Shown here: one piece after another, positions 22,251 to 61,542 of the stretch
Position numbering within the stretch: position 1 is the stretch's first letter
Layout of the letters: every line of letters starts with the position of its first letter
Sequence record: OL739525.1
Strand: one strand, 5' to 3'
From: Escherichia phage dw-ec
DNA length: 64,000 bases
Program-made: the position numbers and the translations under genes
Notes under the pieces: model-generated
The model's database searches: none
Seen by the model: only the letters and a program-made list of their open reading frames with translations
What the model was told of the DNA's origin: nothing

Positions 22251-22287
22251 CTTAAGATATCCTTCGTGCTAAACTAGAAGTGAGGAG

Positions 22288-22539: not shown

Positions 22540-22547
22540 GAGGAACA

Positions 22548-22796: not shown

Positions 22797-22803
22797 ATAA
22801 CTA

Positions 22804-22833: not shown

Positions 22834-23042
22834 ACGTTCATCAAGTGTGGTAACAGGGTCGTTGACTTTTGTTAAGAGGGGCTTGCACTGCGGTAGTGTT
22901 AGAGACTACTTCTTCAGAGGTTAGCTACCAAAGAGGAAAAGGAATAGTCTCGGCTCAAGAACTTTTACGCTGAAAGTTGGGCTTGGTCTTAGAGAATGTA
23001 GCGGTTCTCTACAATCGTCAGCGTCTCTGTTACCACATTTAT

Positions 23043-43648: not shown

Positions 43649-44275
43649 ATGGGAATCCCTTTTGACTTAAAACTTGGACCAAACAACGACCTCATCATGG
43701 ACGATGGGGATTTGGTCCTTACCACAACCAGAACAGAAATTGCAGCACAAACTCTTGGGATAACTCTGAACACGTATCGTGGAGAGTGGTTTTTAAATAC
43801 TAACTTCGGTGTGCCTTATTTACAAGAGATTATTGGTGTTGCCAGAAAGAAAGATATTGTAGATAGAATATTTTTAGCAGAGATTGCCAAAAACGTTTAC
43901 GTAGATACAATAAACAGTTATAAATCTGCTTATGATATGGACCAACGTTATTACTCAATGACAGTTATGGTCACAGTTGGAGCAGATACAGTAACATCTA
44001 TATTCAATACTCAACCTTCTGAAGAGTTTATTTACCCTGAAGCTGGTGAAGACAATGCAGCGATCATTTGTGAAGCTTACAGTATTGTTGAGAATTCGAA
44101 TAGACTTTATCGCTTTATCAACTTTGTTGGTTTGCCACGTGATACCTACTCTACTTGGTGGAATGAATGGTCTACAGAGTCAGCAGTGGAAAGAATCATG
44201 GTTAACGAAAAAGGTGATGCATTAGCTACAAACAATGACTTCGGTATAACAGCTATGACAGGAGTAGAAGAGTAA
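43649..44275 (+). CDS. baseplate wedge protein (gp25 / gpW-like)
   Basis: N-terminal MGIPFDLKLG...DLVLTTT...GEWFLNTNFGVPY resembles gp25/GPW family start; 208 aa. Confidence 0.45.
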   Translation: MGIPFDLKLGPNNDLIMDDGDLVLTTTRTEIAAQTLGITLNTYRGEWFLNTNFGVPYLQEIIGVARKKDIVDRIFLAEIAKNVYVDTINSYKSAYDMDQRYYSMTVMVTVGADTVTSIFNTQPSEEFIYPEAGEDNAAIICEAYSIVENSNRLYRFINFVGLPRDTYSTWWNEWSTESAVERIMVNEKGDALATNNDFGITAMTGVEE

Positions 44276-44748
44276 TGGCAGATTTAACTACGATCAAAAT
44301 TTCTGATCTTACACAAACAACCTCTGTGTCTGATACAGATTTCTTTGTAACAGATCAGGCTGGAATAACAAAGAAAACTTCTTTGAAAGTGCTGTTGAGT
44401 GGTGCAGGGGTAACTAGAAACCGTCTGAATGCACGGGGAACAGTAACTAGCACCTTGGCATTAGATATTAGTTCAGCAGAATATTTTTCTGCAACTTTAT
44501 CTTCTGCAACGTGCACAATTAGTTTTACTAATATTCCAGTAGCAACAAATGCAGTTTTAAACTTTACTTTAGCTTTGCGTCAAGGAAGTGGTGCAAATAA
44601 AGTCGTATGGCCTTCTTCTGTAAAATGGAGTTTTGGTCGCCCCCCAGTTTTGAGTTATCGTCAAGGTGCAACAGACACTTTTGAGTTTATCAGTTATGAT
44701 AATGGAGCAACTTGGACAGGTAGCTTAGTTTTAGCAGGAGTTATTTAA
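44275..44748 (+). CDS. hypothetical tail fiber-associated protein
   Basis: 157 aa; ORF track; coupled ATGA junctions. Confidence 0.35.
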   Translation: MADLTTIKISDLTQTTSVSDTDFFVTDQAGITKKTSLKVLLSGAGVTRNRLNARGTVTSTLALDISSAEYFSATLSSATCTISFTNIPVATNAVLNFTLALRQGSGANKVVWPSSVKWSFGRPPVLSYRQGATDTFEFISYDNGATWTGSLVLAGVI

Positions 44749-47624
44749 TGTCAAGAGTTAAGCACAATATTGACAACACGTTTCAGTTGATTGAAGGGTT
44801 GGTTCAGTTTTTGGAAAGAAATACTGGTCTTACCATAGATCCTACGGTTCAGCACTACATTATCAACCCACAAAACGTATTGGCGAACAACAGACACTTT
44901 ATTAACTGGACAGCGCAGGAAGGGCAACCAAACGGTGACGCTACTACCGAAGGTCAATCTGTGCTTATCACTGGTTTTGCTTATGCATATTTGGCTACAG
45001 GAGATAAAAAATATCTTGAATCTGCCGAGAAGTATTGGCAAGCCTATATAGATCACTTCTTCGGGGGCCAACCTATTCCTGATCCTCCAGCTAAGTATCG
45101 TCCCAACTGGATCATCAATGGTAAAGAACCACGTTTAGCACACTACCCTCTCACAGATGATGGGTATCCTACGCACGGTGGGTTCAAAGGTAGCATGATG
45201 ACTTGGATTAACGGAAGGACTGTTATTCCTAAAGGTGCGCCACATTGGGGAGAATACTTAGATAAAGCTTGGTTTGCTTTCAATGGTAATCTTGGTTGGA
45301 ACTCTGTTAACGCAACAGTGTATGCAACTAACCCAGATGGTTCAACCAACTGGAAAGAATATGGAGATCAGTGGGACGTTGAATGGATTATAGATCGTCT
45401 AGGACGTAAAGTTGATTGGGATGGTAACATTTTATCCACTGGGCATAGCTTTGCAGAATATGGAACAGTGCAACTTAAAAACGCTTCTGTGAACGGAGAC
45501 TATAAATTCAACTACGCTACATGCAATCCTGTAGAACACGGTGGATATCTGCTTAAGCGTAATGAGATGTGGCATAACCGTCCTGTAAACGTTCCGGTAG
45601 AGTTAGGTTATCAAGACAATGCTTCCGATGCTGAAACGTGGTGGTGTGATGCAAACTACTTAATGTATCAGATCACAGGAGAGAGAAAATACTGGCTTTG
45701 CTGGCAATCTTCTTTATTGTTGTGTCAAGACTACTCAAACATCGATATGTTTGATAAATTCTTCCGTAGATCTACGACAGCAATAATTCCTTTTACAGAT
45801 GGTATCTCGTATGATTACTCATACCCATCTACAGCAATACCTAAATATTCTCGTGACGAGTTAGGATACACAGTAATTCGCCAAGATGTTGCAGCACAAA
45901 CAACTCTAGAACAACAGGCAGTTTGGTTCAGAGTGGATCAGAATTCAAAACTGCGTATTGAGTTTCAAGGCGTAGATGATGCAGGGGAAGGTGTTCTTTT
46001 CCGTCCAGAGTTAGAATTAAGCAAGACTAAGAGTGAAACAGACACAGTGACATATCGTTGTGGCTTACCTCTTGGTGCAGCTAATATGACTAAGATGGAT
46101 ATACCTTTATCCAGTTTTATGCGCACTGAACCTCCTGGAGGTGGTGTATATATTATTGCCGAACCTAGAATCATTGTTGACTGGGGAAGCAATACTGTGA
46201 TACAATATAAATATGCAACTGGTATTGCTGGGACAAATAGTGATCAGATAGTTTCTGCTAATATGGATTCAGATGGTGGTTTTACTATTGGGTTTTGGTT
46301 AACACCAACTAAAACAACCAATTTAAAATCTATTACGTATCGTTCATACGCAGATGATTTTAACATCACTATTACGGATTCCGCAGGTTGGAGATGGTGG
46401 GCCATGTTAGAAAAAACAAATTCTGCATGGGTTACTAAAGCTTTAAGTCCTGCTGATTTCAAATTAAGTACTTGGCAACCTAATCACAATGACACAGAGA
46501 CAAAACCTTCGTCAATAAACCTGACTGCTGTTGATCAGATGAACATTGCATTGGATTCTGAACCTGCAAATGGCTTGACAGGGGCAATCGACTTTTATTG
46601 CGTTAACGATATCCCATCTTTGTATTCTTCAGCCGCTGGTGATGATTACACAATGTATTTCAGGGTTACAGTTTCATCTGAAAATCCTTATACAGCAAAA
46701 CTTGGAGATTGTACAATACTGGACTACAAACTTGACAGTTTGAATTATACTCCAGGAATCATCCCATTTTCCAATATTAGTGATCCTAATACAGCATTAT
46801 ATGACGGTTGGCGTGGTATTCCTTACCCAGGTTATCAATACCCATCCTTATATTGTTTTAAAGGGAGAGATATTGACTGGGTTCGTATGAACAACAGTAT
46901 AGACTTTTTATATGATTCACAAATGTGGTTTTATAATAAGTTTGCCCCTGTAATGCCTGGGCCAATGGCACAAGCTTATGTTTGGGATCGTTGGGATGCT
47001 CATAAATATGGAAACAAAAATGAGTTCACAATGTATCATTGGAACGATAAAGCTTGGGATGGTTATGAAGCAAGAGCATTCTTCTGTGCGTGTCATACGG
47101 TATACGAACTAAAGCGACGAGGAGCCGAAGTTCCTGAAAAACTTTTAACAGTTTGTAAAAACTGGATCAACTACCTGAAGTGGTTCCAAGATAACAACGA
47201 AGGAAGAACACCAACAATATTTTATCCCAACGGAGAAGTGGCTGCGCCTGTAGATGACTTTACAAGTCACATGTCTGCGCTCTTTATGGCGGGATGTGCT
47301 ATAATGGGGATGGCTGGATATGATTCAGAAATTCCTAACATTAAAATAGTAGCAGATCGCTGTTTTGAACTTATTCAGGAAAATTATATTGTTCTTGGTC
47401 CTAATCACGTTATGAATGGTTGTTGGAGTGCTGCTCCTAGACCAGACAGTGATAACGGAGTCTTCTTTGGCTTCCACGCTGGAGAGTTGTTACGTGGTTT
47501 TGGGTTGTATGCTTTATACAAAAAACTTAATCCCCAAAATGCATTACCTGTTTTGGATTCGAGCAATATTCCTGCACTTACTGTTTTGACAATGGCAAAC
47601 ATTAGTGTGGACGTTACCGAGTAA
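44748..47624 (+). CDS. large tailspike / tail fiber protein
   Basis: 958 aa, Trp/Tyr/Asn-rich; within tail module. Confidence 0.45.
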   Translation: MSRVKHNIDNTFQLIEGLVQFLERNTGLTIDPTVQHYIINPQNVLANNRHFINWTAQEGQPNGDATTEGQSVLITGFAYAYLATGDKKYLESAEKYWQAYIDHFFGGQPIPDPPAKYRPNWIINGKEPRLAHYPLTDDGYPTHGGFKGSMMTWINGRTVIPKGAPHWGEYLDKAWFAFNGNLGWNSVNATVYATNPDGSTNWKEYGDQWDVEWIIDRLGRKVDWDGNILSTGHSFAEYGTVQLKNASVNGDYKFNYATCNPVEHGGYLLKRNEMWHNRPVNVPVELGYQDNASDAETWWCDANYLMYQITGERKYWLCWQSSLLLCQDYSNIDMFDKFFRRSTTAIIPFTDGISYDYSYPSTAIPKYSRDELGYTVIRQDVAAQTTLEQQAVWFRVDQNSKLRIEFQGVDDAGEGVLFRPELELSKTKSETDTVTYRCGLPLGAANMTKMDIPLSSFMRTEPPGGGVYIIAEPRIIVDWGSNTVIQYKYATGIAGTNSDQIVSANMDSDGGFTIGFWLTPTKTTNLKSITYRSYADDFNITITDSAGWRWWAMLEKTNSAWVTKALSPADFKLSTWQPNHNDTETKPSSINLTAVDQMNIALDSEPANGLTGAIDFYCVNDIPSLYSSAAGDDYTMYFRVTVSSENPYTAKLGDCTILDYKLDSLNYTPGIIPFSNISDPNTALYDGWRGIPYPGYQYPSLYCFKGRDIDWVRMNNSIDFLYDSQMWFYNKFAPVMPGPMAQAYVWDRWDAHKYGNKNEFTMYHWNDKAWDGYEARAFFCACHTVYELKRRGAEVPEKLLTVCKNWINYLKWFQDNNEGRTPTIFYPNGEVAAPVDDFTSHMSALFMAGCAIMGMAGYDSEIPNIKIVADRCFELIQENYIVLGPNHVMNGCWSAAPRPDSDNGVFFGFHAGELLRGFGLYALYKKLNPQNALPVLDSSNIPALTVLTMANISVDVTE

Positions 47625-47632
47625 GGGGTAAA

Positions 47633-49786
47633 ATGAAACAAGCTATATTTACTGTCACGCGAGACAAGAGAGTAAATGCGAGTTCATTTAACTACACGAC
47701 TGTTGACGGAACAGCAGTCGCTGGTAGAGATTATATTGCAAAATCGGGAACACTTGTGTTCCCTGATGATGCTGATTCTGCTACTATTGTGGTTGAAGTA
47801 TTTGAACGACCAAAGAACTCAATAGATCTTAACTTCTCCCTCCAAGTTTCAGGGATTAGTCAAAATAACATGATGGTTGAAACAACCATCAATTGTATTA
47901 TAACTACTATCCAAGAAAATACTACTCCAATAACTTGGACTACAAAAGACGTTAAAATGTTCTCTCCTATGTATTGGACAATAGACTCTCAAGCAACGGA
48001 AAGTTGTTCTATTGTATCTCATGGAGACTCTTTTACTGCAAGATTTGTAAACAGAACAACAGCAGGTTTGGCAGGGGTTATCTGGAGCACAGTTGACAAA
48101 TATGATCACAAAGGTGTTGGGTATTTACCACACACAGATTTAAGTTCAGATAAACTTTGGTTTAAAATGGAAATTAGTCAAAACATGCCAGGTTTTAAAG
48201 AAGAACCTTTGGTGCCGACTTTGACTGTAACTCTCCTGGATAAAAGTGTTCATTATGTCAGTTTAGGATTCTACGCTTCGGATATTTCAGAAGATGGTAA
48301 AACAGCTACAATCAAGTTAGATTTTGGTAATATCTTTTCTGGCCCTAATAATGATATTCCTTTGGATATGAGTGCTGTAGATAATATTTTCTTCTCTTTG
48401 ATTACAGCAAGGTATGAAGAAATAGAAGAGGTTGTACCTATTGACAGTCAAGAGGCTTGGTTTACTTTCACTCTTCTTGAACCTACCTCTGGTTATAGTA
48501 TGATGAAAGTCAGCAACCTTGTCCAGCCTGAACATGATATTCGCATGTGCACATCTTATGATGATATGTATAACCTGACTCCAGAAAGAGTTATTTATAA
48601 TACATATGCGCTAGGTTATCGTGGAATGATTAACCATTACAACGGAATGTCTCACTATTATGAGTTCTCATGGAACGGAACATCTTGGGCTTTAAATAGA
48701 TCTGTTTTCCTGAATCCGGCTACAGAAGCTTGGCTAAATAGTTTCCATTCTATAGCAAACGAGAAGGGCTACACGATAATGAACTCTTTAAGTTTTGAAT
48801 TGATGAGCACAGTTTGTCCTGTAGAATGGGTCCAGCATGATTGGAACGATGCTCTTGCAGCAACAGGGTATGAACCTCCTAGTTATGTGTTGTCTCCAAC
48901 TATTGACGAAGGTATGGAATATTTGCAAAATGTTATTAATAAAATAGCATCTATTTCGCAAGCTAATAATATTCCAGTTGTCATTCAAATTGGTGAGCCT
49001 TGGTGGTGGTATAATACAGCAAGTAAAATGCCTTGCATATATGATTACACTACCAAACTGGCATTCAACACAGAAACAGGTTTATTTGCACAAGATGCAG
49101 GAACAATAGATAATTATAAAACAGGAACGCCGTTTGACGAATACTATGCATTTTTGTCTCGTAAACTAGGATTAAGAGTTACAAAGTTTGCAACAGATAC
49201 TAGAGCAACTTACCCAGGAGCCAAGGTAACATTGCTTCCGTTCTTGCCATCAATTATCGGCAACGGTTTGATGGAGAAAGTTAACTTCCCGTCTGATTAC
49301 TACATTCCTGAAGCTTTTGATTTTTACTGTTCAGAGTGTTATGACTGGCTTCTGGAAGGTAAGATGATGAAAGCATTTGATGCAATTACCATACCACATG
49401 AAAAATTAGGTTTTGAATATTCTGATATTCACTACCTTTCAGGTTTTGTTCCAGATGCTACTCTTGCACCTTTGTATGGCTTTGATCCTAAATCAAACTA
49501 CCGCACATATCTTTGGAAGATGATTATAGGTAACATAGTGTTGAACGCCAATAAGTTTGACGGACTTACACAATATATATGGGCCTATCCTCAAATAATG
49601 CATGATTCTATCACGGTAGTTAATTCTCAATCCCAAGTTTTCTATATGGGTAACGTGCCTTTGAACGTTTATTTACAGGATATCACTCTTAAACAGGTAA
49701 ATGTTGAGATTGCCACCATAAGTGGAATTACATTAGCCACTAAATCTGGAGAAGATTTAGTAACAACACAAAAATTTTATATATAG
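47633..49786 (+). CDS. tail fiber / tailspike protein
   Basis: 717 aa; ORF track. Confidence 0.4.
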   Translation: MKQAIFTVTRDKRVNASSFNYTTVDGTAVAGRDYIAKSGTLVFPDDADSATIVVEVFERPKNSIDLNFSLQVSGISQNNMMVETTINCIITTIQENTTPITWTTKDVKMFSPMYWTIDSQATESCSIVSHGDSFTARFVNRTTAGLAGVIWSTVDKYDHKGVGYLPHTDLSSDKLWFKMEISQNMPGFKEEPLVPTLTVTLLDKSVHYVSLGFYASDISEDGKTATIKLDFGNIFSGPNNDIPLDMSAVDNIFFSLITARYEEIEEVVPIDSQEAWFTFTLLEPTSGYSMMKVSNLVQPEHDIRMCTSYDDMYNLTPERVIYNTYALGYRGMINHYNGMSHYYEFSWNGTSWALNRSVFLNPATEAWLNSFHSIANEKGYTIMNSLSFELMSTVCPVEWVQHDWNDALAATGYEPPSYVLSPTIDEGMEYLQNVINKIASISQANNIPVVIQIGEPWWWYNTASKMPCIYDYTTKLAFNTETGLFAQDAGTIDNYKTGTPFDEYYAFLSRKLGLRVTKFATDTRATYPGAKVTLLPFLPSIIGNGLMEKVNFPSDYYIPEAFDFYCSECYDWLLEGKMMKAFDAITIPHEKLGFEYSDIHYLSGFVPDATLAPLYGFDPKSNYRTYLWKMIIGNIVLNANKFDGLTQYIWAYPQIMHDSITVVNSQSQVFYMGNVPLNVYLQDITLKQVNVEIATISGITLATKSGEDLVTTQKFYI

Positions 49787-49794
49787 GAGTAAAA

Positions 49795-51693
49795 ATGTCA
49801 ACTACAATTACTAATTTACCCGAAACATCAAAAGTTAATGGTTCAGATTACCTGGTTTTAGATCAACCTGATAAAACTGTTAAAAGCACAGTTTCCAACT
49901 TTCTTACTGACACTGGGGTGGTTTTAGCCACCCAGTTGAAAGATACAAATGGAGCAGATTTAATACAATCCTCAAATGGTAATACTGTTCAGGAAGAGTT
50001 GAATAACAATCTTCTTAATGATCGTGAACAGTGGCGTCGTAGTCTTGCCGAGGCTGGGTTAACTCTTGTTGATGGTAGTTTTGAAGAAGGGGCTACAGTG
50101 GGCAGTGTAACTGATGCTGTTTGGCACATTTCTGTTGGACAGTGTTATACATGGCATGGCGCTTTCCCTAAAACTGTTCCTGCTGACTCAACCCCTGAAG
50201 CATCTGGTGGTGTTGGTATTGGTGCATGGGTTAGTGTTGGAGATGCATCTTTGAGAAGCAATCTTGCATCTGATGATGGCGCGGGTCTGGTCGGATTTAA
50301 GTCGCCTCTGGCCAACTCTATTAAGCGAGCACTACATGATAAAAATAATGACCTGGTGTCAGTCAAGGACTTTGGAGTTGTTGGCGACGGTGTGACCGAC
50401 GATACCGCCGCATTTCAGGCAGCAATAGATTCGAAAAAGAGTTTATACATACCGGATGGTATTTATCTTATAAGCTCTACTTTAATCATAACTGCCACTG
50501 ATAGTTTATGTATTGTTGGTAATAGTTTTGGACATGTTAATGACCAAACAACAGGTTCAGTAATTAAGTTTACTGGGTTAGCGTCACCCGCCATTCGGGT
50601 TCAAGGTGGTGCGATAGGAGCTAAGATTTCTGGACTTTTTCTGGATATCCAGGATTCATCATCTGATGGCTTTGATTTCGGTGGGGCTTGGTATTTAAAA
50701 CTTCAAGATTGCGTTGTCAGAAACGCTCGATATGGGGTCTATTTACATTACGATAGCCCAGACTATTTTTCCGGAGTAGCTGAGCTAACTTCGTGCTATT
50801 TCGCTAAATGCGCAAATGGCGTAAAAACGTCAAAAGTAGATATCAACGTAGTTAAAGTTGATAATTGCACCTTCTTTGACGGAGTTAACGGTGTTCTTAT
50901 TGGTGACTCAGGTGCTGCAAGTAGTGTGCGAAATTTCATAGTCAGAGACTCTCTATTCGAAGCGAACACAGGTTATGACGTAGGCGTCGTCGCTGGGGGT
51001 GCGCAGCAGTTACTGGTAGATGGTAACTATTTCGAAGAGAATACCGCTTCCTCTTTAGCGAGGGTATATGTTGCAGATGATGTTCGCTCTCCGCGTTCTT
51101 CCTCGGTTTCAATAACTAACAACACGTTTAGTAAAGATACGACAGGCGACCTTGTTTTCTTGTCCGGTGTTTCCGGCGTTCTTGTTAAACAAAACTGGTC
51201 TGCGTTCGGAGGTATAGGTTTTGTACGGGCGATTAATATTGACAATTATGAGATAGATAGATGCTCCACAGTATCAGGTGCGGCTCCATGTAATGTTGTC
51301 ATAGACAACATCTTACAAGTACCGGACACTTCTGTTAATAAGATTTCTATTAACAAGGCCCAAGAATACTCGTTTATTGGGACTACTGTCGTAAAAAGGT
51401 CTAGTGCATGTACACGGGCTATGATTCAATTTAATGGAATTTCTGGGTCGTTAGTGTATGCAGACGGAGCAACTGTATCTAAAACCGGGACCGGTAAATA
51501 TACCATCAACCTATCTAATGCTTTACCCTCTTCCGCATACGCTGTTTCGTGTAGTGTCGGCAATACTACAGGCGGAGAGAAATTAGCAATTAATGTTGTA
51601 AGTACATCCGCTGGTTCTTTTAACCTTGAAGTTTTCGACCTTTCAGGGGCGTATCAGGATTCTGGATACATATCTGCCGCAGTTATTATGTAA
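49795..51693 (+). CDS. tailspike with pectate-lyase-like beta-helix (polysaccharide depolymerase candidate)
   Basis: DFGVVGDGVTDDTAAFQAAID motif typical of pectate lyase superfamily N-terminus; 632 aa. Confidence 0.55.
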   Translation: MSTTITNLPETSKVNGSDYLVLDQPDKTVKSTVSNFLTDTGVVLATQLKDTNGADLIQSSNGNTVQEELNNNLLNDREQWRRSLAEAGLTLVDGSFEEGATVGSVTDAVWHISVGQCYTWHGAFPKTVPADSTPEASGGVGIGAWVSVGDASLRSNLASDDGAGLVGFKSPLANSIKRALHDKNNDLVSVKDFGVVGDGVTDDTAAFQAAIDSKKSLYIPDGIYLISSTLIITATDSLCIVGNSFGHVNDQTTGSVIKFTGLASPAIRVQGGAIGAKISGLFLDIQDSSSDGFDFGGAWYLKLQDCVVRNARYGVYLHYDSPDYFSGVAELTSCYFAKCANGVKTSKVDINVVKVDNCTFFDGVNGVLIGDSGAASSVRNFIVRDSLFEANTGYDVGVVAGGAQQLLVDGNYFEENTASSLARVYVADDVRSPRSSSVSITNNTFSKDTTGDLVFLSGVSGVLVKQNWSAFGGIGFVRAINIDNYEIDRCSTVSGAAPCNVVIDNILQVPDTSVNKISINKAQEYSFIGTTVVKRSSACTRAMIQFNGISGSLVYADGATVSKTGTGKYTINLSNALPSSAYAVSCSVGNTTGGEKLAINVVSTSAGSFNLEVFDLSGAYQDSGYISAAVIM

Positions 51694-51726
51694 ATAATGC
51701 TCACTCCAGATATCCATCATGTAAAA

Positions 51727-51750
51727 AACCCCTCTTCGGAGGGGTTTCCT
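51727..51750 (+). terminator. intrinsic terminator
   Basis: CCCCTC-TTCG-GAGGGG hairpin followed by TTT. Confidence 0.5.
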
Positions 51751-51770
51751 AGAAAAACAATGAGGTTTAT

Positions 51771-52079
51771 ATGAACGAAATGTTCTCACAAGGTGGTAAG
51801 GGTTCAACTGGAATCTTAACCAACAAACAAGCAGTAGCCCGTCACTTTGGGGTTAAGCAATCTGAGGTTGTTTACTTCTCAGTTGGTGTGGATTTGGGTG
51901 GGTATAAGGTTATCTATGATAAGGAGACGCAAAGGGCGTATTCCCTACCTGCTGATATTGCCCCAGGTACTACTGCCATTAGTCTTAGTGCTGCTGTACT
52001 TGTGCATTCAGCGGGTTCTGTAGACCTTGGGGAATTAGCTGTATCTCGTGATTTAAAAAGTAATGAGAATGCACTATGA
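51771..52079 (+). CDS. hypothetical protein (102 aa)
   Basis: ORF track. Confidence 0.4.
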   Translation: MNEMFSQGGKGSTGILTNKQAVARHFGVKQSEVVYFSVGVDLGGYKVIYDKETQRAYSLPADIAPGTTAISLSAAVLVHSAGSVDLGELAVSRDLKSNENAL

Positions 52080-52318
52080 GAAAATTTTTAATAGGTATGT
52101 TCTGTACATATCCTGATAATAAAGTCAGTTCTACGAAAGTCTGGAACGCTGTAGGCATGTCGGTTATGACAGGCATGTTTATCTTTTTAGGAATAGAAAA
52201 AGAAATTCCTGAATGGATGGGTTGGGCTTTTGTTTTCATGATAACTCCTTCTCGCCTCATGAAAAATCTTATTGATTTACGCTGGGGCAGATCACAATCT
52301 ACCAAAGAGGATGACTAA
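52076..52318 (+). CDS. small two-TM membrane protein (holin-like topology)
   Basis: Two hydrophobic helices and charged C-terminus RWGRSQSTKEDD; 80 aa. Confidence 0.35.
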   Translation: MRKFLIGMFCTYPDNKVSSTKVWNAVGMSVMTGMFIFLGIEKEIPEWMGWAFVFMITPSRLMKNLIDLRWGRSQSTKEDD

Positions 52319-53805
52319 TGGACGAATATGGTTTGACAGATGCGGGATTTGTAATCCCGACTTTTGACGATGTTTTAAACAACTACATGACAGCAGTAAA
52401 AAACACATTTGGTGCAGATGCAGCCACTTCGGAAGATACTGTGATCGGACAACTGTTTAGAATAATTGCATACACAGATTACACATTGTGGGAAGGTATG
52501 CAAGGTGTTTATAATACTCAAACACTGGATGGTGCAGAAGGTATTTATCTTGATGAAATCTTTTCTAAACGCGGTTTCTATCGAGCAGGTGCAGCAGCAA
52601 GTACAGGTTATGCATATGTTAAGAGTAATAACAAAGCAGCTTGGACTTATGAGCTAGGCACGGATATTTACTTCAACTCTGACAGCGATATGAACTACTA
52701 TGTTAGCACACCAACTATGTTGAATGCTAAGATTGCAGCTTATCAAATCTCTCGTGCTAATGCAACTGCTACAGGTGTTCCAAATATTACTTTTTATGCA
52801 CAAAGTGCGGTCGATGGAGGACTAAACAGTAAAACACTTGCACCTGGTTCTTCTACATTTATAACCGATCTTGAAACTTTTATCAAGGCAAATTTAACAG
52901 AAGCTGATCGTAGTCTTGTATTTTCTGATTCAGGTAACTTATCAATTGGTTTTACTTCTTTAACCAGTGATACTCCAGTGGGGCTGGTAACTCCTATTAA
53001 ATTTTATGCTAGTGTTCCGGTTGGAACTAAATGGAGTGAGATTCCGGTAGTTGCAGCAGAGAAAGGATACAATCCTGTTGGTGTGGAGTCTATTACAGGG
53101 ATATCTTCTACCTTTACAGGTTATCTTGACAGTGGTAACTTCTATTCATTTTCTCCTGGTCGAGATGTTGAGACAGACGCAGAATTCCGCTCTCGTTTCA
53201 ATGACAACGTTGATGAAGCTAACGCAGGGACACGAGCAGCTATTGTGAAAGCTCTGTTGCTTACAGATGGTGTTACTAAGGTGAAGATTTATGATAACCC
53301 TACGTTACATGATCAAGAACACGCTCCAGCTATGACTTTCCAGACTATAGTTTATGGTGGCAGTGCAGAAGAAATTGCAAATGTTATCTATAAAACCAAA
53401 CCAATCAACACTTTGACACACGGAACAACTAACATAACAGTTACAACAGAAGATGGAGGACAAGAAATTATTCGCTTCTCCCCTGGTGCTTCTGCTATGT
53501 ATTCTGTAAAACTTGTTTATCAAACTGTCAACGGAACAACTTTAAGTGGAACAGAAAAACAAAACATCGTAGAAGCTTTACAAAACCTGCAAGCTTACTT
53601 TGAGTTAGGTTCTTCAGTAACGAACGATCAAATCAAAGGTGTTATTTATGCAGCACTTGCTTTTGGACGCTTGACTTCTCTTCGTGTTTATGTTAAACTT
53701 AATACTGAGGATGACAGTAAATATACAGAGAATAATATAGTTCCTGCTTATAATGTTGTCCCTTCTTTTGACCTTGATAACATTTCTTACGAGTATGGAG
53801 TGTAA
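52318..53805 (+). CDS. baseplate J-like protein
   Basis: 495 aa; position before I/H/G-like genes in P2-like order. Confidence 0.4.
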   Translation: MDEYGLTDAGFVIPTFDDVLNNYMTAVKNTFGADAATSEDTVIGQLFRIIAYTDYTLWEGMQGVYNTQTLDGAEGIYLDEIFSKRGFYRAGAAASTGYAYVKSNNKAAWTYELGTDIYFNSDSDMNYYVSTPTMLNAKIAAYQISRANATATGVPNITFYAQSAVDGGLNSKTLAPGSSTFITDLETFIKANLTEADRSLVFSDSGNLSIGFTSLTSDTPVGLVTPIKFYASVPVGTKWSEIPVVAAEKGYNPVGVESITGISSTFTGYLDSGNFYSFSPGRDVETDAEFRSRFNDNVDEANAGTRAAIVKALLLTDGVTKVKIYDNPTLHDQEHAPAMTFQTIVYGGSAEEIANVIYKTKPINTLTHGTTNITVTTEDGGQEIIRFSPGASAMYSVKLVYQTVNGTTLSGTEKQNIVEALQNLQAYFELGSSVTNDQIKGVIYAALAFGRLTSLRVYVKLNTEDDSKYTENNIVPAYNVVPSFDLDNISYEYGV

Positions 53806-54446: not shown

Positions 54447-55508
54447 ATGGCGAAGCCAATATATTATCCTGACTGGGCTACACAAACTGTAACGCTCCCA
54501 GGAACTTTAAACACAAACAAAATTAGACCTAAAGAAACCATCCGCACAGTTGGTATGGATTATGGTCAAATCATGACTTGCGAAGAAATGAACTGGATTC
54601 TTAATAATATCGGTTTATGGATTCGCTATTTGGTGGATGACTTTCTTCCAACTTTACCTAATACCTACTTGCCTTTAGTGGGAACTAAGATTACAATGGC
54701 AGGTGATGCTACTGGTGAGGCTACTTGGAACGGTAACAAAGAAGTTACTTTATCTATCCAGGTTCAAGATAACAGTCATAATCACTTGTCGGCAAACATT
54801 ACAGATGCCACTAGTTCAACAGTAACACCAAACGTGCTGGTAAAACGTGATGCGGGTGGTGCTATTTATGGTGGCGATGTTTATGTTAACGGTACTTCCA
54901 CAACAGATCCTGCAACACTGTTCTTCAAAAACTTTGCAGGACAAACAAATGGTGAGATTTCTGCCGAGTATCAAAGCGGAGGTCAGCTTTATATTTATCG
55001 TAGAAATCCTAGCACAGGTAGTGTATCGGCAGGTGTTCGTTTATATGATGCAGGTTATGTTCTAATAGATAGTCCAAGATCAAACAGTGGACAAGATACT
55101 TCTAACGGAAATGCTTTAGTTCGTTTAGATTATCTGAACTCTCGTTTGACTTCCCTTCAGAACACATTGCAGACGAATATTAACACTGTTCAAAACAACT
55201 TGAATAATGTTAACAACAACCTCTCTTCTCGTATAAACAATGTAGAAAGTAATCATCAAAGTCAGATTACAAATAACTACAACTATGCTAACGGAACCTT
55301 TGTAAGAGATATTCGTTATACTAGCCAAGGTGTGTATTATCCACCAGGGAACGAGGTTTCTTGGACTTATATCTGTTCTTCTGGTTATGTTCTTTCTGGT
55401 ATTATCGTACAGGAAACAGGACGTAGCTCTGCGGATAACATCGGTGGGGTTTACTTCAAACGCCTCCAGCGCAACGTTAACGGAAACTGGTACGATATTG
55501 GAGGCTAA
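54447..55508 (+). CDS. tail fiber protein (gpH-position)
   Basis: 353 aa; Asn/Ser/Thr-rich repetitive C-terminus. Confidence 0.45.
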   Translation: MAKPIYYPDWATQTVTLPGTLNTNKIRPKETIRTVGMDYGQIMTCEEMNWILNNIGLWIRYLVDDFLPTLPNTYLPLVGTKITMAGDATGEATWNGNKEVTLSIQVQDNSHNHLSANITDATSSTVTPNVLVKRDAGGAIYGGDVYVNGTSTTDPATLFFKNFAGQTNGEISAEYQSGGQLYIYRRNPSTGSVSAGVRLYDAGYVLIDSPRSNSGQDTSNGNALVRLDYLNSRLTSLQNTLQTNINTVQNNLNNVNNNLSSRINNVESNHQSQITNNYNYANGTFVRDIRYTSQGVYYPPGNEVSWTYICSSGYVLSGIIVQETGRSSADNIGGVYFKRLQRNVNGNWYDIGG

Positions 55509-56054
55509 ATGATATTTACAAACTTTAAAAAATATATTCCTGAAGACCCTGAACTAAAAGAATTGGTAGAAGCAGAGAACATTCTTTTTCTTCGTTGCGA
55601 TCAAGGTTACGATTGGTATGATTTACGTAGCACAGAATTCAATAACGATAAAATGAAAGTCGTTTTTGATGATCAAAATCGTATTGTGTTTTGGAATACT
55701 GATCCTACACTACTTTGCCCTGAAGATCTTTCTATAGCACAAGTAGACTTTAATATAGATACTTTTGAGGATATTAGGAACAAGGTTCTGGATTTAGAAA
55801 CCTTAACTCTTAAGGATAAAGAGTATTCCCGTGAAGAGTTGATGACACAAGCTAGTGCAAAAATTCGCTCTTTACAAGAAACAGCGGTAGCACTTATAAC
55901 ACCTTTACAGTATGCTAAAGATTTAGAAATGGCTACTGAAGACGAATTAGCTTATCTTAAAAATCTTCAAGTTTATGTAGTTAAACTAAATCGTGTTCCG
56001 CTTCAAAAAGACTATCCTTACGCTATAGATTGGCCTACATTACCGACAGAATAA
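55509..56054 (+). CDS. tail fiber assembly protein candidate (gpG-position)
   Basis: 181 aa directly after fiber gene. Confidence 0.35.
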   Translation: MIFTNFKKYIPEDPELKELVEAENILFLRCDQGYDWYDLRSTEFNNDKMKVVFDDQNRIVFWNTDPTLLCPEDLSIAQVDFNIDTFEDIRNKVLDLETLTLKDKEYSREELMTQASAKIRSLQETAVALITPLQYAKDLEMATEDELAYLKNLQVYVVKLNRVPLQKDYPYAIDWPTLPTE

Positions 56055-56063
56055 GGGATCACT

Positions 56064-56399
56064 ATGGAATTTCAAGAAGCATGGGGACTTGCAAAGGATG
56101 CAATAATCCCTTTAATCGGAGTCATCTGGTTCTTTTTCAAACAAAAAATGGATAAATTCGGCTCTGATCTTGAGGAAATGGAGGAGAAAAGTCGAGAGCT
56201 AGAGAAGAAGTTGGTCTTTGTTGAATCAACTTACGCAACTAAAGCCGAACTTACCCAGATGCTAAATCAAATTAACTCTACATTAATGGCAAATAACAAC
56301 ACCCTTGAGCAAAAAATTGAAAAGATTATGGACCTCAAGAATGCGACTATCCAAATGATGCTAGATGACATAGTTAAACGTACACAGAATAAGGGGTAA
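56064..56399 (+). CDS. membrane-anchored coiled-coil protein
   Basis: N-terminal hydrophobic helix then Glu/Lys-rich helical region; 111 aa. Confidence 0.35.
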   Translation: MEFQEAWGLAKDAIIPLIGVIWFFFKQKMDKFGSDLEEMEEKSRELEKKLVFVESTYATKAELTQMLNQINSTLMANNNTLEQKIEKIMDLKNATIQMMLDDIVKRTQNKG

Positions 56400-56402
56400 T
56401 TA

Positions 56403-59400
56403 ATGGCAACATTCCCAACATATCCAGCAACGTCTCTCGAACAGGGCGTAGACCTGGTTATTTTCTCATCTAACCAACTCCATGATGTTATTAATGGAAG
56501 TGCTACAGAGAGTATTGAAACAGAATCAGGGTTGATACCAACCCTGAGAAAAGCCCTTGTTGACAACTTTTTCTTTAAAAGCCCATTGGATTGGGCGCAA
56601 GGCACAAACGAAACAGTTTTTAACCAACTTCGTTATTTCCAGAATGGAGTATTGAGCGGTTATTACTATGCTCCTAACGCTACATTGGTTAACCCAATCC
56701 CTATGCAAGGGACTCCAGTAGGAGATAACAACTGGGTATTGTGGGGACTGAAAACAGAACAATTAGCAACAGAAGTCACCCCGTGGGTATACTCTGGTGC
56801 AACTGGTTATGAAACAGTAATTAGTCCTCCTTACATCTTTGATAGTGCTATTGTTACGATCAATGGTGTTATTCAGGTTCTGGGGGAAGCTTTCCGTATA
56901 GAAGACAGTAAGATCATCTTATCTGAACCTTTGGGACACGATCCTGCAACAGGACTGCCAAACAAGCTTTTTGCTTATATTGGTAAAATCGTAGCTTCAG
57001 CAGATACAGATCCTAATCTAGAGAACCGTCTTGTTAGTTTAGAAACAAAAACGGAAGAACTAACAGAAAGCATGGATAAAGTCCCTCTGCAAACTATTGC
57101 TCGTAAGTATGGTTTGTTAGATGATGAGGTGGCTTACGCAACAGCAGGTCAATCGTTAACAGGGATTAAAGCTCTGTACGATCCGGTAGCACAGTCTTCC
57201 TACACATTACCTCCTAACATCACAGGAACTTTAACATCCTTATCTGTTTCTGGAGTAATGACTTATTCTGGAGGATCTGTAGACCTTTCTGCACTGGCTG
57301 TTGAGCGTGGACAGTTTGTTCATTTGCCTACAAGCTTTGGTAATAACGTAACTCTGACAGCTAAAAATCAGACGATTGGACGTGGTGCTGGTCGTTATCG
57401 TTGGGCTGGAAGTTTACCAAAAAGTATTTTGGCCTCTGATACATTGGAGACAAGCGGAGGATTAGGTCCAAATGCATGGGTTCTGACTAATACAGAAGGA
57501 CTGTTAACCCCTCGTGGTGGAACATACAACGATCTATTCGATGTTGTCTACTTGTCAGAATTTGCTAACAATACAACTACCTATACCACACCAGAAGCAG
57601 CTTTCCAGGCGGCACTGTTAGCAGCAAAAGCTTCGAAAAGCAAGATTCTCGATGCTTACGGTTGCGACATGACTTTCACGACAAGCTCTTTTGATATTCA
57701 AGATATCACTTTGCGTGGTGGTGTGTTCCGTGGTCAACGCGACTATCGTGTGCAGAATGCTACAGTAGAAGGCACAACTTTCCGTAACTCTCGTGTTATG
57801 TATTGGGGTGGTGCTGTGCGCATGTTCGATTGTTTGTGGGACGGTGCTCCTCGCGCAGGTCAAGTTGGTAGCTTGGTATTCCAAGGCAACCCAATATCAG
57901 GTACTTTTGAAATTGATAATTGTACTTTTAAAAACGGGTTATATGGTATTCTTCAACAAGGAACAGGGGAACCAGTAACACGCGGTGTCTTCCGTAACCT
58001 TACCTTCATGGACATGCAAGGTGATGCAATAGAACTGAACGTCATCAATAAACATTATGACGATGGTTGTGTGATTGAGAATATTTACCTGTCTAATATC
58101 GATGGGACTAACGCTCCTATTCCTCTGTCCAACTGGGGTATCGGTATCGGTGTAGCTGGTAAAGGACCATATGGTTACGGAATCCCTGATGATCAATATT
58201 GTAAGAACATTACAATTCGTAACGTTTTTGCAAAACGTTGTCGTCAGATTGTCCACGTAGAAGTTGGTCGTAATATCTCTATCGAAAACATTCATGGCGA
58301 TCCAGATCAAACCGTATCTGTTGGGACAGGTTTGGCAACTGGCGCAGTTGTAATGTATGGAAGTAAAGACTTTACGATTGATGGTGTTTATGGAGAGCCT
58401 AAAACAGACGGTAGCACACTTGCAAGTAATATCCGTATGATTTACTTGGAGTGGGGAACTAACGCAGTTCTGGATGAAGAGGGTAATCCGGTAGTTCCGG
58501 CACAGGGCAGACCTTCAAACCCATGCTTTAACTATTCTGTTCGTAACGTTCACACCAAAACTGGGCGTGTTTTTGCGGGAGTTTCCGCTGGGCCAGGTTA
58601 TGAAAACAGAGTTAGCTTTGAAAATATTCGTTGCGCTGCCTTGCAGTTGTTCGGTATAGCTTCTTGGCTTTCAATGTCTAACATCACCTGTAATATCTTC
58701 GATTGTGTTGGTCAACCTGAATCTGGTCCAGGGACATTTTATGATGGATTCTTCCGTAGAGAAAAATCTGTTCTTGAAATGGTTAACGTAAACTGTTACC
58801 CAGATGGCAAGACGATGGTTACTGGTCGTCCACAGTGGAGCCGTTGCCGTTACTCGGATATTCATCGTGTCAACTGTAATGTTGAAGCTAATATGTATAC
58901 CAATATCGCAGGTGGTATTGGAGCTATTGTAGGGACAACGGGCAAAGTTTATTACTTAGAGCCTAATCCTAGTCGAAACATTGATGGAATGCATTTCCCA
59001 ACAGGGAAAGAGTTTGACAAAGGGGATATGATAGTCAAGGCGGATAATACGTTCTTCCTTGTAACAACAAGTGGGGCATATATTCCAGATATCCCAGCTT
59101 TCGGTATTCGAGCTACACAGGCAGGAGATACCTTCCTGACACAGAACTTGACTCCTAACGGGACAGCAACAAATGCTTCTTGGTTGTATCATTACCCTCT
59201 GTCAGCAGGGACACGTATCCGTATTCCTGGCGCTGGTGTAGGTGGAGCAGATTTGGACACAGTTATTACTCGTGCACCTTATCAAGATAATGATACGTGG
59301 ACTAACCCAGTTAAAATAGACATTGCAGATCCAATTGTAACGCCTACAAGTGCTGGAGTTAGAATTAAAACCATACCTAATGATTCCAGTAATGTTTCTG

Positions 59401-59456
59401 TAGGTAATACTGCGGTTATTCGCCCAACGCCAGTAGTAGATGTGCCAACAACCTAA
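56403..59456 (+). CDS. large tailspike protein
   Basis: 1017 aa; Gly/Asn/Thr-rich repetitive central region. Confidence 0.45.
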   Translation: MATFPTYPATSLEQGVDLVIFSSNQLHDVINGSATESIETESGLIPTLRKALVDNFFFKSPLDWAQGTNETVFNQLRYFQNGVLSGYYYAPNATLVNPIPMQGTPVGDNNWVLWGLKTEQLATEVTPWVYSGATGYETVISPPYIFDSAIVTINGVIQVLGEAFRIEDSKIILSEPLGHDPATGLPNKLFAYIGKIVASADTDPNLENRLVSLETKTEELTESMDKVPLQTIARKYGLLDDEVAYATAGQSLTGIKALYDPVAQSSYTLPPNITGTLTSLSVSGVMTYSGGSVDLSALAVERGQFVHLPTSFGNNVTLTAKNQTIGRGAGRYRWAGSLPKSILASDTLETSGGLGPNAWVLTNTEGLLTPRGGTYNDLFDVVYLSEFANNTTTYTTPEAAFQAALLAAKASKSKILDAYGCDMTFTTSSFDIQDITLRGGVFRGQRDYRVQNATVEGTTFRNSRVMYWGGAVRMFDCLWDGAPRAGQVGSLVFQGNPISGTFEIDNCTFKNGLYGILQQGTGEPVTRGVFRNLTFMDMQGDAIELNVINKHYDDGCVIENIYLSNIDGTNAPIPLSNWGIGIGVAGKGPYGYGIPDDQYCKNITIRNVFAKRCRQIVHVEVGRNISIENIHGDPDQTVSVGTGLATGAVVMYGSKDFTIDGVYGEPKTDGSTLASNIRMIYLEWGTNAVLDEEGNPVVPAQGRPSNPCFNYSVRNVHTKTGRVFAGVSAGPGYENRVSFENIRCAALQLFGIASWLSMSNITCNIFDCVGQPESGPGTFYDGFFRREKSVLEMVNVNCYPDGKTMVTGRPQWSRCRYSDIHRVNCNVEANMYTNIAGGIGAIVGTTGKVYYLEPNPSRNIDGMHFPTGKEFDKGDMIVKADNTFFLVTTSGAYIPDIPAFGIRATQAGDTFLTQNLTPNGTATNASWLYHYPLSAGTRIRIPGAGVGGADLDTVITRAPYQDNDTWTNPVKIDIADPIVTPTSAGVRIKTIPNDSSNVSVGNTAVIRPTPVVDVPTT

Positions 59457-59517: not shown

Positions 59518-61542
59518 ATGAATTTAACAAGACCTAATAGTGCGATAGCCGATCTGGTAGAAGCTACTTATCGAAAACGTCGCAGCTTTGAGGCAGGTTT
59601 TACATTACGTAATTCCCGTGAAGTTTTGCTGTTAGCAGCAGAAGGGAATTATTACCAATGGAAAGGAACTTTTCCTAAAGTTGTTCCAGCAAACTCTACG
59701 CCAGCCACCACAGGTGGTATTTCTTCCCTTGCATGGCAAAGTGTTGGGACCGCTGATGATATAGCAATTATCAATGCCAAGTTTACGGCAATGCAGCAAC
59801 AGATTGATGATCTGTCGGAAACAATACCTGAAGCTGGTAAATCGGCTTATCAGATCGCACTTGATAATGGTTTTGTTGGAACAGAAGCACAATGGCTTGC
59901 TTCTTTGAAAGGGGATACTGGTGCTCAACTTAATATTAAAGGATCATTAGCAAACACTAGTGAACTACCATCCACAGGTAACGTTGCAGGGGATGGTTAT
60001 ATCGTAGGTGATGTAATCTACGCTTGGGACGGTTCTGTTTGGAAACTTATTTCTTCTCTTGGGCCAGAAGGTAAATCAGCTTACGAGGTATGGTTGGCAG
60101 ATGGTAATACAGGATCTGTTTATGATTTTCTTACCTCTATAAAAGGTGATAAAGGTGATGTTGGTCCTACAGGGCCACAGGGAGCACCTGGTGTTAACGC
60201 CAACGGTTTTGATTATCGTGGGGATTTGCCTTCTACAAGTAACTTACCACAACCAAACTCTGAAAACGTAAGTCAAGCTTATTCTATCAATGGTAATCTT
60301 TATGTCTCTAATGGGACAGCTTGGGTCAACATGGGTAATATTGTTGGTCCTCAAGGTCCACAAGGTGAGGCAGGTAAAGACGGTCTTGATGGAACAGATG
60401 GAGATGAAGGGAAATCTGCATATCAAAGTTGGCTGGATGCTGGTAATGAAGGGACAGAAGTAGATTTTATTGCCTCACTTAAAGGTCCAAAAGGAGACAA
60501 AGGTGATCAAGGAGAGCGAGGTCCACAAGGTGAACTAGGTCCACAAGGACCAGTGGGTGCAACAGGATCAGGCTTAGATATTATCGGGGTTCTGAACAGT
60601 GAAGCTGAACTTCCTCCTACCGGAGAAGTAGGTGATGCATATAAAATTAATAATGATTTATATGTTTGGGTTCAAGATGCTACGGAATGGATGAATGTTG
60701 GCAGTCTTGGAGGAACATCAATTACAGCTAAAGGTCATGTTCCGAACAGTGAAGCTCTCCCTGTTTATAATAACTATGGCGATGCCTACTTAACTGAAGA
60801 CACTAGTAATCTTTACATCTATACCTACGATCAAGACACCAATTCCGCATCTTTTGTTGACATGGGAAGTATTAAAGGCGACAAAGGTGAAAAAGGGGAT
60901 AAAGGAGATAAGGGTGATCCTGGAACAAACGGAACCAACGGTACTGATGGGACCAACGGTAAGGACGGCGCACAGTGGTTTGTAGCAACAACTAATCCAG
61001 TTGCAGGAGACGGTGTTATCAATGATTACGCCTTCAATACTACCACTGGAGCAGTGTTTAAGAAAACAGATTCTTCTACGTGGACGCTTATAGGCACTCT
61101 TCCTAGTATACCAGAAGCCCCTCAAGACGGCTTGACGTATGGTCGGTCTGATGGAAACTGGATCGAAATATCAGGATCAGATCCTACGGAAGCTATAACA
61201 CCAACTAGAGTTACAGCAGGTTTCATGGAACTTGAAACAACTGCTGCCAACTCTGGAGCATCTTGGACTCCTTCTGGAACTTCCAATATGTATGTTGTTA
61301 CAGTAACTGATGCTCTGACAGTTGGAGCATGGCCTGGTGTCACTGGCTCTACAAAACCTAAAGCGTTTTCAGCAATGATTTATTTGATTCAAGATACAAC
61401 GGGACACACGGTTACACTAGATGCGTCTTATGGAGCACTAAATGATACAGAAATAGCAACTGCTGCTAACGCAGTAACAATTTTGCAATTAACGTATCCT
61501 GGTGTGGGTGATATCGTGGACATGGTTGTTGTAACACGATAA
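59518..61542 (+). CDS. tail fiber with collagen-like Gly-X-Y repeats
   Basis: Multiple G-X-Y runs (GDKGDVGPTGPQGAPG; GPQGPQGEAGKDGLDGTDGDEGKS; GDKGEKGDKGDKGDPGTNGTNGTDGTNGKDG); 674 aa. Confidence 0.55.
   Translation: MNLTRPNSAIADLVEATYRKRRSFEAGFTLRNSREVLLLAAEGNYYQWKGTFPKVVPANSTPATTGGISSLAWQSVGTADDIAIINAKFTAMQQQIDDLSETIPEAGKSAYQIALDNGFVGTEAQWLASLKGDTGAQLNIKGSLANTSELPSTGNVAGDGYIVGDVIYAWDGSVWKLISSLGPEGKSAYEVWLADGNTGSVYDFLTSIKGDKGDVGPTGPQGAPGVNANGFDYRGDLPSTSNLPQPNSENVSQAYSINGNLYVSNGTAWVNMGNIVGPQGPQGEAGKDGLDGTDGDEGKSAYQSWLDAGNEGTEVDFIASLKGPKGDKGDQGERGPQGELGPQGPVGATGSGLDIIGVLNSEAELPPTGEVGDAYKINNDLYVWVQDATEWMNVGSLGGTSITAKGHVPNSEALPVYNNYGDAYLTEDTSNLYIYTYDQDTNSASFVDMGSIKGDKGEKGDKGDKGDPGTNGTNGTDGTNGKDGAQWFVATTNPVAGDGVINDYAFNTTTGAVFKKTDSSTWTLIGTLPSIPEAPQDGLTYGRSDGNWIEISGSDPTEAITPTRVTAGFMELETTAANSGASWTPSGTSNMYVVTVTDALTVGAWPGVTGSTKPKAFSAMIYLIQDTTGHTVTLDASYGALNDTEIATAANAVTILQLTYPGVGDIVDMVVVTR

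Follow-up and report, generated by a model that had tools for sequence, protein, structure and literature searches.

We have found that a block of genes in Escherichia phage dw-ec (record OL739525.1; positions 43649-53805 of the 64,000-nucleotide (nt) stretch that we analysed and call the window), all on the plus strand, very probably belongs to the adsorption-apparatus, or tail-tip, locus of a phAPEC8/phi92-type Phapecoctavirus, a myovirus of E. coli, in which a baseplate core, a conserved set of genes and one spike cassette are followed by further tail proteins. We base this reading on homologies, synteny, recombination junctions and fold predictions. An earlier note on this DNA had taken the genes between the W-like and J-like baseplate genes for a site of modular exchange filled by three large fibre or spike proteins. 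That interpretation is right in outline, as regards a multivalent tail and modular exchange, but wrong in detail, because the locus has one exchangeable spike beside three conserved proteins, two of the presumed spikes among them being no spikes.

We envisage an apparatus of four parts. The first would be a contractile-tail baseplate of the P2/Mu type, comprising hub, spike, sheath initiator W and the wedge proteins J and I. The second would be a conserved set lodged between W and J, in which a 157-amino acid (aa) adaptor (p157), always paired with a 958-aa (alpha/alpha)6 glycosidase-like protein (p958), is followed by a 717-aa protein (p717). The third would be a single cassette slot holding a beta-helix tailspike protein (TSP), here TSP632, whose residues 1-54 may act as a lineage-specific anchor and whose remainder, the D2 domain and the beta-helix, would be swapped with unrelated phages through recombination; left-hand crossovers would fall after codon 54 or in or after the shared D2 domain, and right-hand crossovers just 5' of a conserved 102-aa orphan spike fragment (p102) or at the start of the next gene. 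Finally, a short fibre and its chaperone, a colanidase spike, a collagen-like fibre and a protein with immunoglobulin (Ig) domains may round off a multivalent tail. The enzymatic activity, the target glycans and the joining of p157, p958 and p717 into one physical arm on the wedge are what we infer from the evidence below.

Results

Identity of the locus and its baseplate core

The block is 96-98.5% identical at the nucleotide level, over the aligned parts, to dozens of GenBank genomes of Phapecoctavirus (Stephanstirmvirinae), among them phAPEC8 and Ro121c4YLVW, with which it is syntenic gene for gene. It always aligns to Phapecoctavirus records in two pieces (~80-85% coverage, at 97-98% nt identity for many of them), the gap being the 632-aa gene. 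Of the 19 proteins encoded at 38.6-61.5 kb, 18 have 98-100% aa identity to their Ro121c4YLVW counterparts, the 632-aa spike being the exception. phAPEC8 is without p102, and its homologue of the 80-aa membrane protein is 94% identical. The genes of the region are densely packed on one strand (Table 1). The listing of open reading frames (ORFs) places every ORF named in the earlier note on the plus strand where it had been put, and adds three small ones that the note had omitted, of 157, 102 and 80 aa. Because the genes are real and conserved, chance is irrelevant for the block.

Table 1. Features of the tail-tip locus of phage dw-ec, in positions of the window
Feature	Coordinates	Strand	Matches and basis
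Central baseplate spike, 244 aa	42913-43647	+	Pfam PF18352 and PF21930 (spike N-terminal and beta-helical trimerisation domains)
Sheath initiator, gp25/W-like, 208 aa	43649-44275	+	PDB 21vq_L, phi92 gp139, E=5e-101; PHROG 120 (baseplate wedge subunit)
p157, small trimer-type adaptor or fibre, phi92 gp140 homologue	44275-44748	+	PHROG 9017
p958, conserved tail-associated protein, predicted (alpha/alpha)6 glycosidase-like, with beta-sandwich inserts resembling carbohydrate-binding modules; phi92 gp141 / rV5 gp42 homologue	44748-47624	+	
p717, Calx-beta, NCTSP_N and TIM barrel, phi92 gp142 homologue	47633-49786	+	Pfam PF03160, PF23844 (E=4e-16), PF23845 (E=5e-79)
TSP632, beta-helix tailspike, 632 aa	49795-51693	+	Pfam PF18668 (Tail_spike_N) and PF12708; PDB matches
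Anchor-coding 5' segment of the spike gene (aa 1-54), conserved left cassette border	49795-49956	+	95.7-98.8% nt identity among five Stephanstirmvirinae spike genes
GC-rich hairpin AAAAAACCCCTC-TTCG-GAGGGGTTT in the spacer between spike and p102	51723-51747	+	Read directly from sequence
p102, orphan D1 (N-terminal) domain of a TSP1-type tailspike, right cassette border	51771-52079	+	
Hydrophobic putative membrane protein, 80 aa, phi92 gp144 homologue	52076-52318	+	PHROG 1322; 19-residue hydrophobic window peak from aa 22
Wedge protein, J/gp6-like, 495 aa	52318-53805	+	PDB 21vq_h, phi92 gp145, E=5e-267 (two chains per entry); Pfam Baseplate_J
Wedge protein, I/TssG position, 209 aa	53808-54437	+	PDB 21vq_D, phi92 gp146, E=6e-121; 'wedge 1' proteins
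Short tail fibre (353 aa; phi92 gp147, 'fibre III') and chaperone (181 aa)	54447-55508; 55509-56054	+	PHROG 4465, 136; Pfam Caudo_TAP
Colanidase-type tailspike, 1017 aa, internal D1 and D2	56403-59456	+	PDB 6e0v, phi92 gp150, E=1.5e-78; PHROG 6117
Collagen-repeat fibre, 674 aa, D2 at its start	59518-61542	+	Pfam PF18668 (aa 12-77) and Collagen; PHROG 15437
Further tail protein, cut by the end of the window	61584-64000	+	Pfam WD40_RLD/RCC1 (RCC1-like propeller) and Big_2 (Ig-like)

The central spike is 99-100% identical in aa sequence in Ro121c4YLVW and phAPEC8. The 208-aa protein encoded next to it gave no match to Pfam GPW_gp25; a PDB search matched it, besides phi92 gp139, to the sheath initiators of Pam3 (gp21), E217-type and other phages. 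The J-like and I-like wedge genes lie side by side, and 'wedge 1' and 'wedge 2' proteins of other phages were matched; the protein in the I position has no Tail_P2_I match in Pfam and a weak one only to DUF2612. In the cryo-electron microscopy (cryo-EM) structure of phi92 (2026), gp139 is the sheath initiator, gp145 and gp146 form the wedge and gp147 is fibre III (PMC13450770), and because these assignments match ours we consider the reading of W, J, I, fibre and chaperone to be correct. The P2-type order that had been described for this DNA, with spike and W followed after extra genes by J, I, fibre and chaperone, is borne out as P2/Mu-like. In P2/Mu, for which a P2-like prophage was compared, the V-W-J-I-H-G genes likewise run from spike and sheath initiator through two wedge proteins to fibre and chaperone, but W and J are contiguous there, whereas ~8 kb with six ORFs separate them here.

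A single exchangeable tailspike

TSP632 is, on its predicted fold, a genuine beta-helix tailspike. It consists of an anchor (aa 1-54), a linker, a Tail_spike_N domain (D2; aa 93-150), a beta-helix from ~aa 187 and a C-terminal beta-sandwich. The pectate-lyase-type motif that had been noticed in one of the three large proteins lies here, as a match to PF12708 at residues 188-250 (E=4e-14), and sequence matches in the PDB are to TSP1, TSP3 and TSP4 of CBA120, to Sf6 and to other spikes. AlphaFold2 gave a confident ladder of helix strands at ~aa 187-470, with a predicted local distance difference test score (pLDDT) mostly >80, and Foldseek matched the model to CBA120 TSP3, TSP1 and TSP4 and to Sf6 with a probability of 1.0.

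TSP632 is also the sole variable gene of the block, and exchange is limited to it and the p102 fragment that follows. On the left, alignments to related genomes break at 49955, which is codon 54 (phAPEC8, nieznany and Justusliebigvirus BME3), or at ~50250, the end of D2 (Ro121c4YLVW and ukendt); on the right the break falls at 51720-51740 or, where a genome lacks the 102-aa ORF, exactly on the start codon (ATG) of the 80-aa gene (52076-52081). All breaks are confined to 49955-50256 and 51720-52081, and the variable slot corresponds to the position of phi92 gp143, between conserved homologues of gp142 and of gp144/gp145. The five spike genes that share the anchor differ in their receptor-binding parts, and one of them is that of BME3, whose flanking genes are ~78% identical to those of dw-ec. 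More than 25 clusters of spike proteins encoded on 140-152-kb contigs have only the N-terminal 25-36% in common, and the C-terminal domains found among the alleles include sialidase, GDSL esterase, peptidase S74 and other beta-helices. The receptor-binding part of TSP632 itself is 90.7% identical in nt and 89% in aa sequence to a spike of the Ackermannviridae phage YX22, and 85-90% identical in aa sequence to spikes encoded by an N4-like contig of 72 kb and a siphovirus-like one of 48 kb; full-length matches to TSP632 (94-96%) occur on two other contigs of ~146-150 kb. In Justusliebigvirus EmilieFrey the slot is empty, the 717-aa homologue being followed by the small membrane-protein gene and then by J. 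Exchange of spikes between Ackermannviridae and Phapecoctavirus has been noted earlier (PMC10791037, PMC11414711). We also considered assigning a receptor to TSP632 from the host of a relative and rejected this, as the closest named relative infects the avian pathogenic Escherichia coli (APEC) strain IMT5155 but carries several spikes.

These data bear directly on the idea that the whole 8-kb block is variable cargo made up of three independently exchangeable fibre or spike genes. All three large proteins do have carbohydrate-related folds, and since W and J adjoin each other in P2-like prophages and in Kolesnikvirus, extra genes did enter this interval at some time. However, p157, p958 and p717 are 98.7-99.5% identical in aa sequence within Phapecoctavirus, 75-83% in Justusliebigvirus and 35-43% in Vequintavirus, the alignments are broken at the 632-aa gene only, and p958 and p717 are neither beta-helix nor fibre proteins. 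We therefore regard three-gene cargo as very improbable, and it is already largely refuted. Of the three large fibre/spike proteins that had been proposed, the 632-aa protein stands as a spike, while for the other two the predicted folds are an (alpha/alpha)6 barrel (958 aa) and a TIM barrel (717 aa). Likewise, modular exchange holds for the 632-aa spike and p102 and fails for the invariant 157-, 958- and 717-aa genes, which are resident genes conserved in related genera rather than variable inserts.

The orphan spike fragment at the right border

Over its residues 1-93, p102 shares up to ~93% identity with the N-terminal ends of complete spikes from Kuttervirus (e.g. SFP10 TSP1) and N4-like phages, and the protein ends exactly at the D1/D2 boundary, plus nine unrelated residues. 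The homology to the spike region reaches 52 nt further upstream and takes in the GC-rich hairpin, which lies inside a stretch 86% identical in nt sequence to the region 5' of SFP10 TSP1; the hairpin was not called by our terminator scan because its T-run is short. We read p102 as a stub left by the 5' end of a neighbouring spike gene; it would have come with an earlier import from a spike array and may now mark the right edge of the cassette.

Alternatively, p102 could be the dead remains of a second tailspike gene once present here, without any role and conserved merely through recent spread, an explanation to which we give slightly less than an even chance. The precise cut of a spike N-terminus at a domain boundary fits a remnant of this kind. 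The junction is present in 48 of 86 related records, and the ~38 without p102 include phi92 and phAPEC8, so p102 is dispensable. The ratio of nonsynonymous to synonymous substitution rates (dN/dS) is near 1 in near-identical pairs of orphan copies, which have too few changes to be interpreted; in more diverged pairs, however, it is 0.07-0.15. Further points speak for maintenance. The length of the ORF and its nine-residue tail are constant in five phages of two genera, p102 has a good ribosome-binding site (GAGG), and its stop codon and the ATG of the 80-aa gene overlap. Moreover, 97% nt identity is kept across genera where the flanks are ~78% identical: in BME3, p102 is 96.8% and the first 162 nt of the spike gene 97.5% identical, as against 77-85% for the end of the 717-aa gene, the 80-aa gene and the J-like gene.

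We note that the 80-aa gene lies within the baseplate operon, directly 5' of the J-like gene, and is described in the phAPEC8 record as conserved in rV5 and PVP-SE1. One GenBank record names its homologue 'membrane protein-holin'.

The conserved proteins between W and the spike

p157 has an N-terminal anchor motif common to tailspike N-termini and a C-terminal domain that accompanies the 958-aa family. The N-termini of TSP632 and of the PVP-SE1 spike share this motif with the 157-aa family (E=1e-4 to 1e-7). For p157 as a whole, Pfam returned a sub-threshold BNR match only (E=0.067) and the PDB search no match. A domain shared with the collagen-like fibre was considered and dropped, a direct BLASTP comparison not being significant.

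For p958, with no Pfam match at E up to 1 and no sequence match in the PDB, structure prediction alone was informative. The AlphaFold2 model (pLDDT 87, pTM 0.82) is an (alpha/alpha)6 barrel broken up by beta-sandwich inserts, and the protein is thus predicted to adopt the toroid fold of GH8/GH105/GH76-like glycoside hydrolases (GH). The family, of ~940 aa, is strongly conserved, with 109 invariant columns across 40 sequences (43-83% identity). Its rV5 member is gp42 by gene order, and the PVP-SE1 annotation ties a 929-aa protein to rv5_gp042; gp42 is among the proteins detected in rV5 virions (PMC3606486). A literature search by gp141/gp142 and Rosemountvirus found no functional study of the 958-aa family. 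We also note that GenBank records bearing p958 include ones with the names of Campylobacter phages (~23 records), an Acinetobacter phage (one) and Klebsiella phage ZCKP1 (e.g. MG065650, OP562383, MH252123). The B15, ABPW7 and ZCKP1 records are 97-99% identical to this E. coli phage locus, and their host names look doubtful.

p717 matches N4 gp64 (9lc0_M, E=4e-30) and gp65 (9lc0 chain I, E=1e-12) in the PDB. The motif GMSHY occurs once in the window, at aa 338-342 of p717. A preprint describes it as the conserved hallmark of phages targeting the N4 glycan receptor and names phi92 gp142 as the binding protein (10.64898/2026.04.02.716166). Dependence on this receptor has been reported for phages of the group (PMC8669472), and in N4 itself gp64 and gp65 build a sheath, gp65 being the receptor-binding protein (PMC13434306). 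From these likenesses p717 is a candidate binder of the broadly conserved N4 glycan receptor, which it probably recognises.

The folds of p958 and p717 might instead serve binding or architecture only, the two proteins being non-enzymatic scaffolds at the baseplate periphery that hold the spikes. In favour of this, the p958 family shows extreme conservation in both length and sequence, a P2-like prophage has p958 fused to gpI, which is a structural wedge protein, the sheath that N4 gp64/gp65 build is structural too (PMC13434306) and no CAZy-type sequence match was found. A receptor-directed module, on the other hand, better fits the occurrence of the p958 family on podoviruses in the position of a tail fibre (phiR8-01); aromatic and acidic residues, of the sort usual in sugar-binding clefts, are invariant at many positions, and a glycan deacetylase domain has been annotated in the p717 family (PMC8594841, PMC8669472). 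We think such scaffolds rather unlikely. A role of p958 as a rigid core part of the baseplate was likewise judged less likely, as the family is also found in the podovirus fibre position.

A possibly mobile gene pair and its natural fusions

The arrangement of these genes differs among related genera. EmilieFrey, which has no spike gene, encodes homologues of the 157-, 958- and 717-aa proteins that are 83%, 83% and 75% identical. Seunavirus PVP-SE1 has W, then a 157-like and a 958-like gene (the latter's product 72.6% identical to p958), a spike gene and J, and no 717-aa homologue was seen in the stretch examined. In Vequintavirus, W and the 157-like and 958-like genes are followed by other large fibres, and in Kolesnikvirus (relatives of Felix-O1), where W adjoins J, the 157-like/958-like pair lies downstream of the fibre genes. 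As judged from gene order, the gain of genes between W and J is placed in the common ancestor of rV5-like phages, and the 157/958/717 set is resident rather than variable.

In ~520 phage genomes of very different lineages the p157 C-terminal domain and p958 are encoded strictly next to each other. The C-terminal domain of p157 is found in 523 phage records, as compared with 533 for the 958-aa protein, with almost identical counts per genus, and the two genes are adjacent wherever both coordinates were listed. In each of six further lineages (Vequintavirus, Seunavirus, Kolesnikvirus, Pienvirus phiR8-01, Rosemountvirus ciri and an SU10-like podovirus contig), the gene lying upstream of that for the 958-aa homologue carries the p157 C-terminal domain (E=1e-15 to 1e-33) behind a lineage-specific N-terminus. 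Among the carriers of the pair are myoviruses (rV5-like, jumbo, Felix-O1-like and Rosemountvirus) and podoviruses (T7-like and SU10-like). In phiR8-01 the pair directly follows the gene for a large lytic-transglycosylase virion protein and precedes a DNA-packaging gene, which we take, by analogy with T7, to be where T7-like phages carry their tail-fibre gene. A weak match to the p157 C-terminal domain (E=8e-6, 34% identity) was also seen in the archaeal Halorubrum tailed virus OP630575.

Two natural fusions involve p958 homologues. On an SU10-like podovirus contig (P0108; L012 6691-11364) the homologue is joined to a 717-aa homologue that is without Calx-beta, the 717-like part being 52% identical over 571 residues. 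In a P2-like prophage with the order V-W-J-I (P0089; L011 8001-11294) it is joined to the N-domain of P2 gpI. The evidence on this set suggests that p157, p958 and p717 form one wedge-attached assembly. Fibres I and II of phi92 were left unmodelled in the cryo-EM paper (PMC13450770). Tentatively, and with somewhat less than even confidence, we propose that p157 and p958 are a mobile two-gene module of adaptor and glycosidase-like protein (~520 genomes), that together with p717 this module would make up the fibre I/II arm of phi92-type baseplates, and that p102 would be a maintained right border of the cassette, not debris.

Several findings weigh against our reading of the locus. The AlphaFold2 model of TSP632 has a moderate overall pLDDT of 67.5, with a poor C-terminal part. 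p958 has no Pfam or CAZy-type signature, no defined GH family and no identifiable catalytic acid/base, and could, as far as its model goes, be a binding or scaffold protein. The Vequintavirus homologue of p717 lies downstream of the I-like gene, so the adjacency of 958 and 717 is not universal. Finally, the phi92 cryo-EM paper has no model or mention of gp141 and gp142 (PMC13450770).

Downstream genes and other features of the window

The genes that follow the wedge genes encode further predicted receptor-binding proteins. The earlier note had placed a 1017-aa spike, a collagen-like fibre and an adhesin with leucine-rich repeats (LRR) and Ig-like domains here. The first is indeed a homologue of the phi92 gp150 colanidase (6e0v), and its residues 226-372 match the N-terminal domains of CBA120 TSP1, TSP3 and TSP4; the second, of 674 aa, matches the Collagen repeat; for the third, the Ig-like part is upheld by a Big_2 match and the LRR part is not supported, LRR_5 reaching E=0.5 only. 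The assignment of the short fibre follows phi92 gp147, which is fibre III (PMC13450770). The idea of a multi-receptor tail with several receptor-binding or glycan-degrading proteins is supported by these sequence and fold matches.

Between the chaperone and the colanidase genes lies a gene for a 111-aa protein (56064-56399), termed 'lipoprotein' in PHROGs, with a hydrophobic N-terminus followed by a Lys/Glu-rich, helical-looking part. Elsewhere in the window the GC skew changes sign at ~21000-23000 (about -0.2 to +0.1), probably where the coding strand switches between two gene blocks, and the GC content is raised (0.42-0.44) at 18-20 kb and 23-25 kb. The terminator and promoter scan gave counts not above those of shuffled sequence, and we base no claim on transcription on it.

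Discussion

The closest likeness of the locus is to phi92 and phAPEC8. The order is that of phi92 gp134-gp151, one gene after another; W, J and I find their matches in solved phi92 chains, the colanidase matches gp150 and the variable gene stands at the position of gp143. That position has been reported to be empty, truncated or occupied by a different spike in relatives, with homologues of 141, 142, 150 and 151 conserved (PMC10269720), as they are here. Two differences are that the slot of phi92/phAPEC8 holds an endosialidase, whereas here it holds a pectate-lyase-type beta-helix spike, and that the 102-aa orphan fragment, present here after the spike, is absent from them.

The spike itself resembles TSP1-4 of the Ackermannviridae phage CBA120, with which it shares D2 (Tail_spike_N) and the beta-helix, and p102 corresponds to D1 of TSP1-type spikes. 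The spike there uses D1, whereas TSP632 has a Stephanstirmvirinae-specific 54-residue anchor, and a four-gene spike array there contrasts with the single slot here. We found no Gp10-type Pfam match, as would be given by gp10-like XD branching domains, through which spikes attach to each other, in the 20 proteins scanned (37.9-61.5 kb).

p717 has NCTSP_N, the TIM barrel and GMSHY in common with N4 gp64/gp65, together with the N4 glycan receptor dependence of related phages. In N4, however, a heterodimer of 417-aa and 1382-aa proteins forms a six-fold, non-contractile sheath around the tube of a podovirus and binds NfrA and the N4 glycan receptor, whereas here one 717-aa chain has a Calx-beta N-terminus. 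Because the present phage has a contractile sheath (a sheath gene is annotated in relatives), the location of p717 is expected to differ from that of the N4 sheath.

The multivalent tail and the variable gene at this position are already published, in work on phi92 and in the BASEL and APEC phage collections, and the tail of phi92 and its relatives has been likened to a Swiss army knife on the nanoscale (Schwarzer et al. 2012, cited through PMC8594841, PMC10269720 and PMC13450770). Since this biology has been published for phi92, phAPEC8 and rV5-type phages, our finding is an ordinary one and carries little weight as a discovery, the locus being ~97% identical to that of many sequenced phages. 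The 157/958 pair, the fusions and the orphan D1 are possibly new side results, and we regard them and the borders of the cassette as modest leads, not as discoveries.

The practical value of the finding lies in phage therapy and host-range engineering, as the borders of the cassette show where a new receptor-binding module could be grafted: at codon 54 or D2 on the left, and at p102 or the start of the membrane-protein gene on the right. Lastly, the 157/958 pair and the fusions of 958 with 717 and with gpI could help to assign the unresolved fibre densities in the 2026 cryo-EM structure of phi92.

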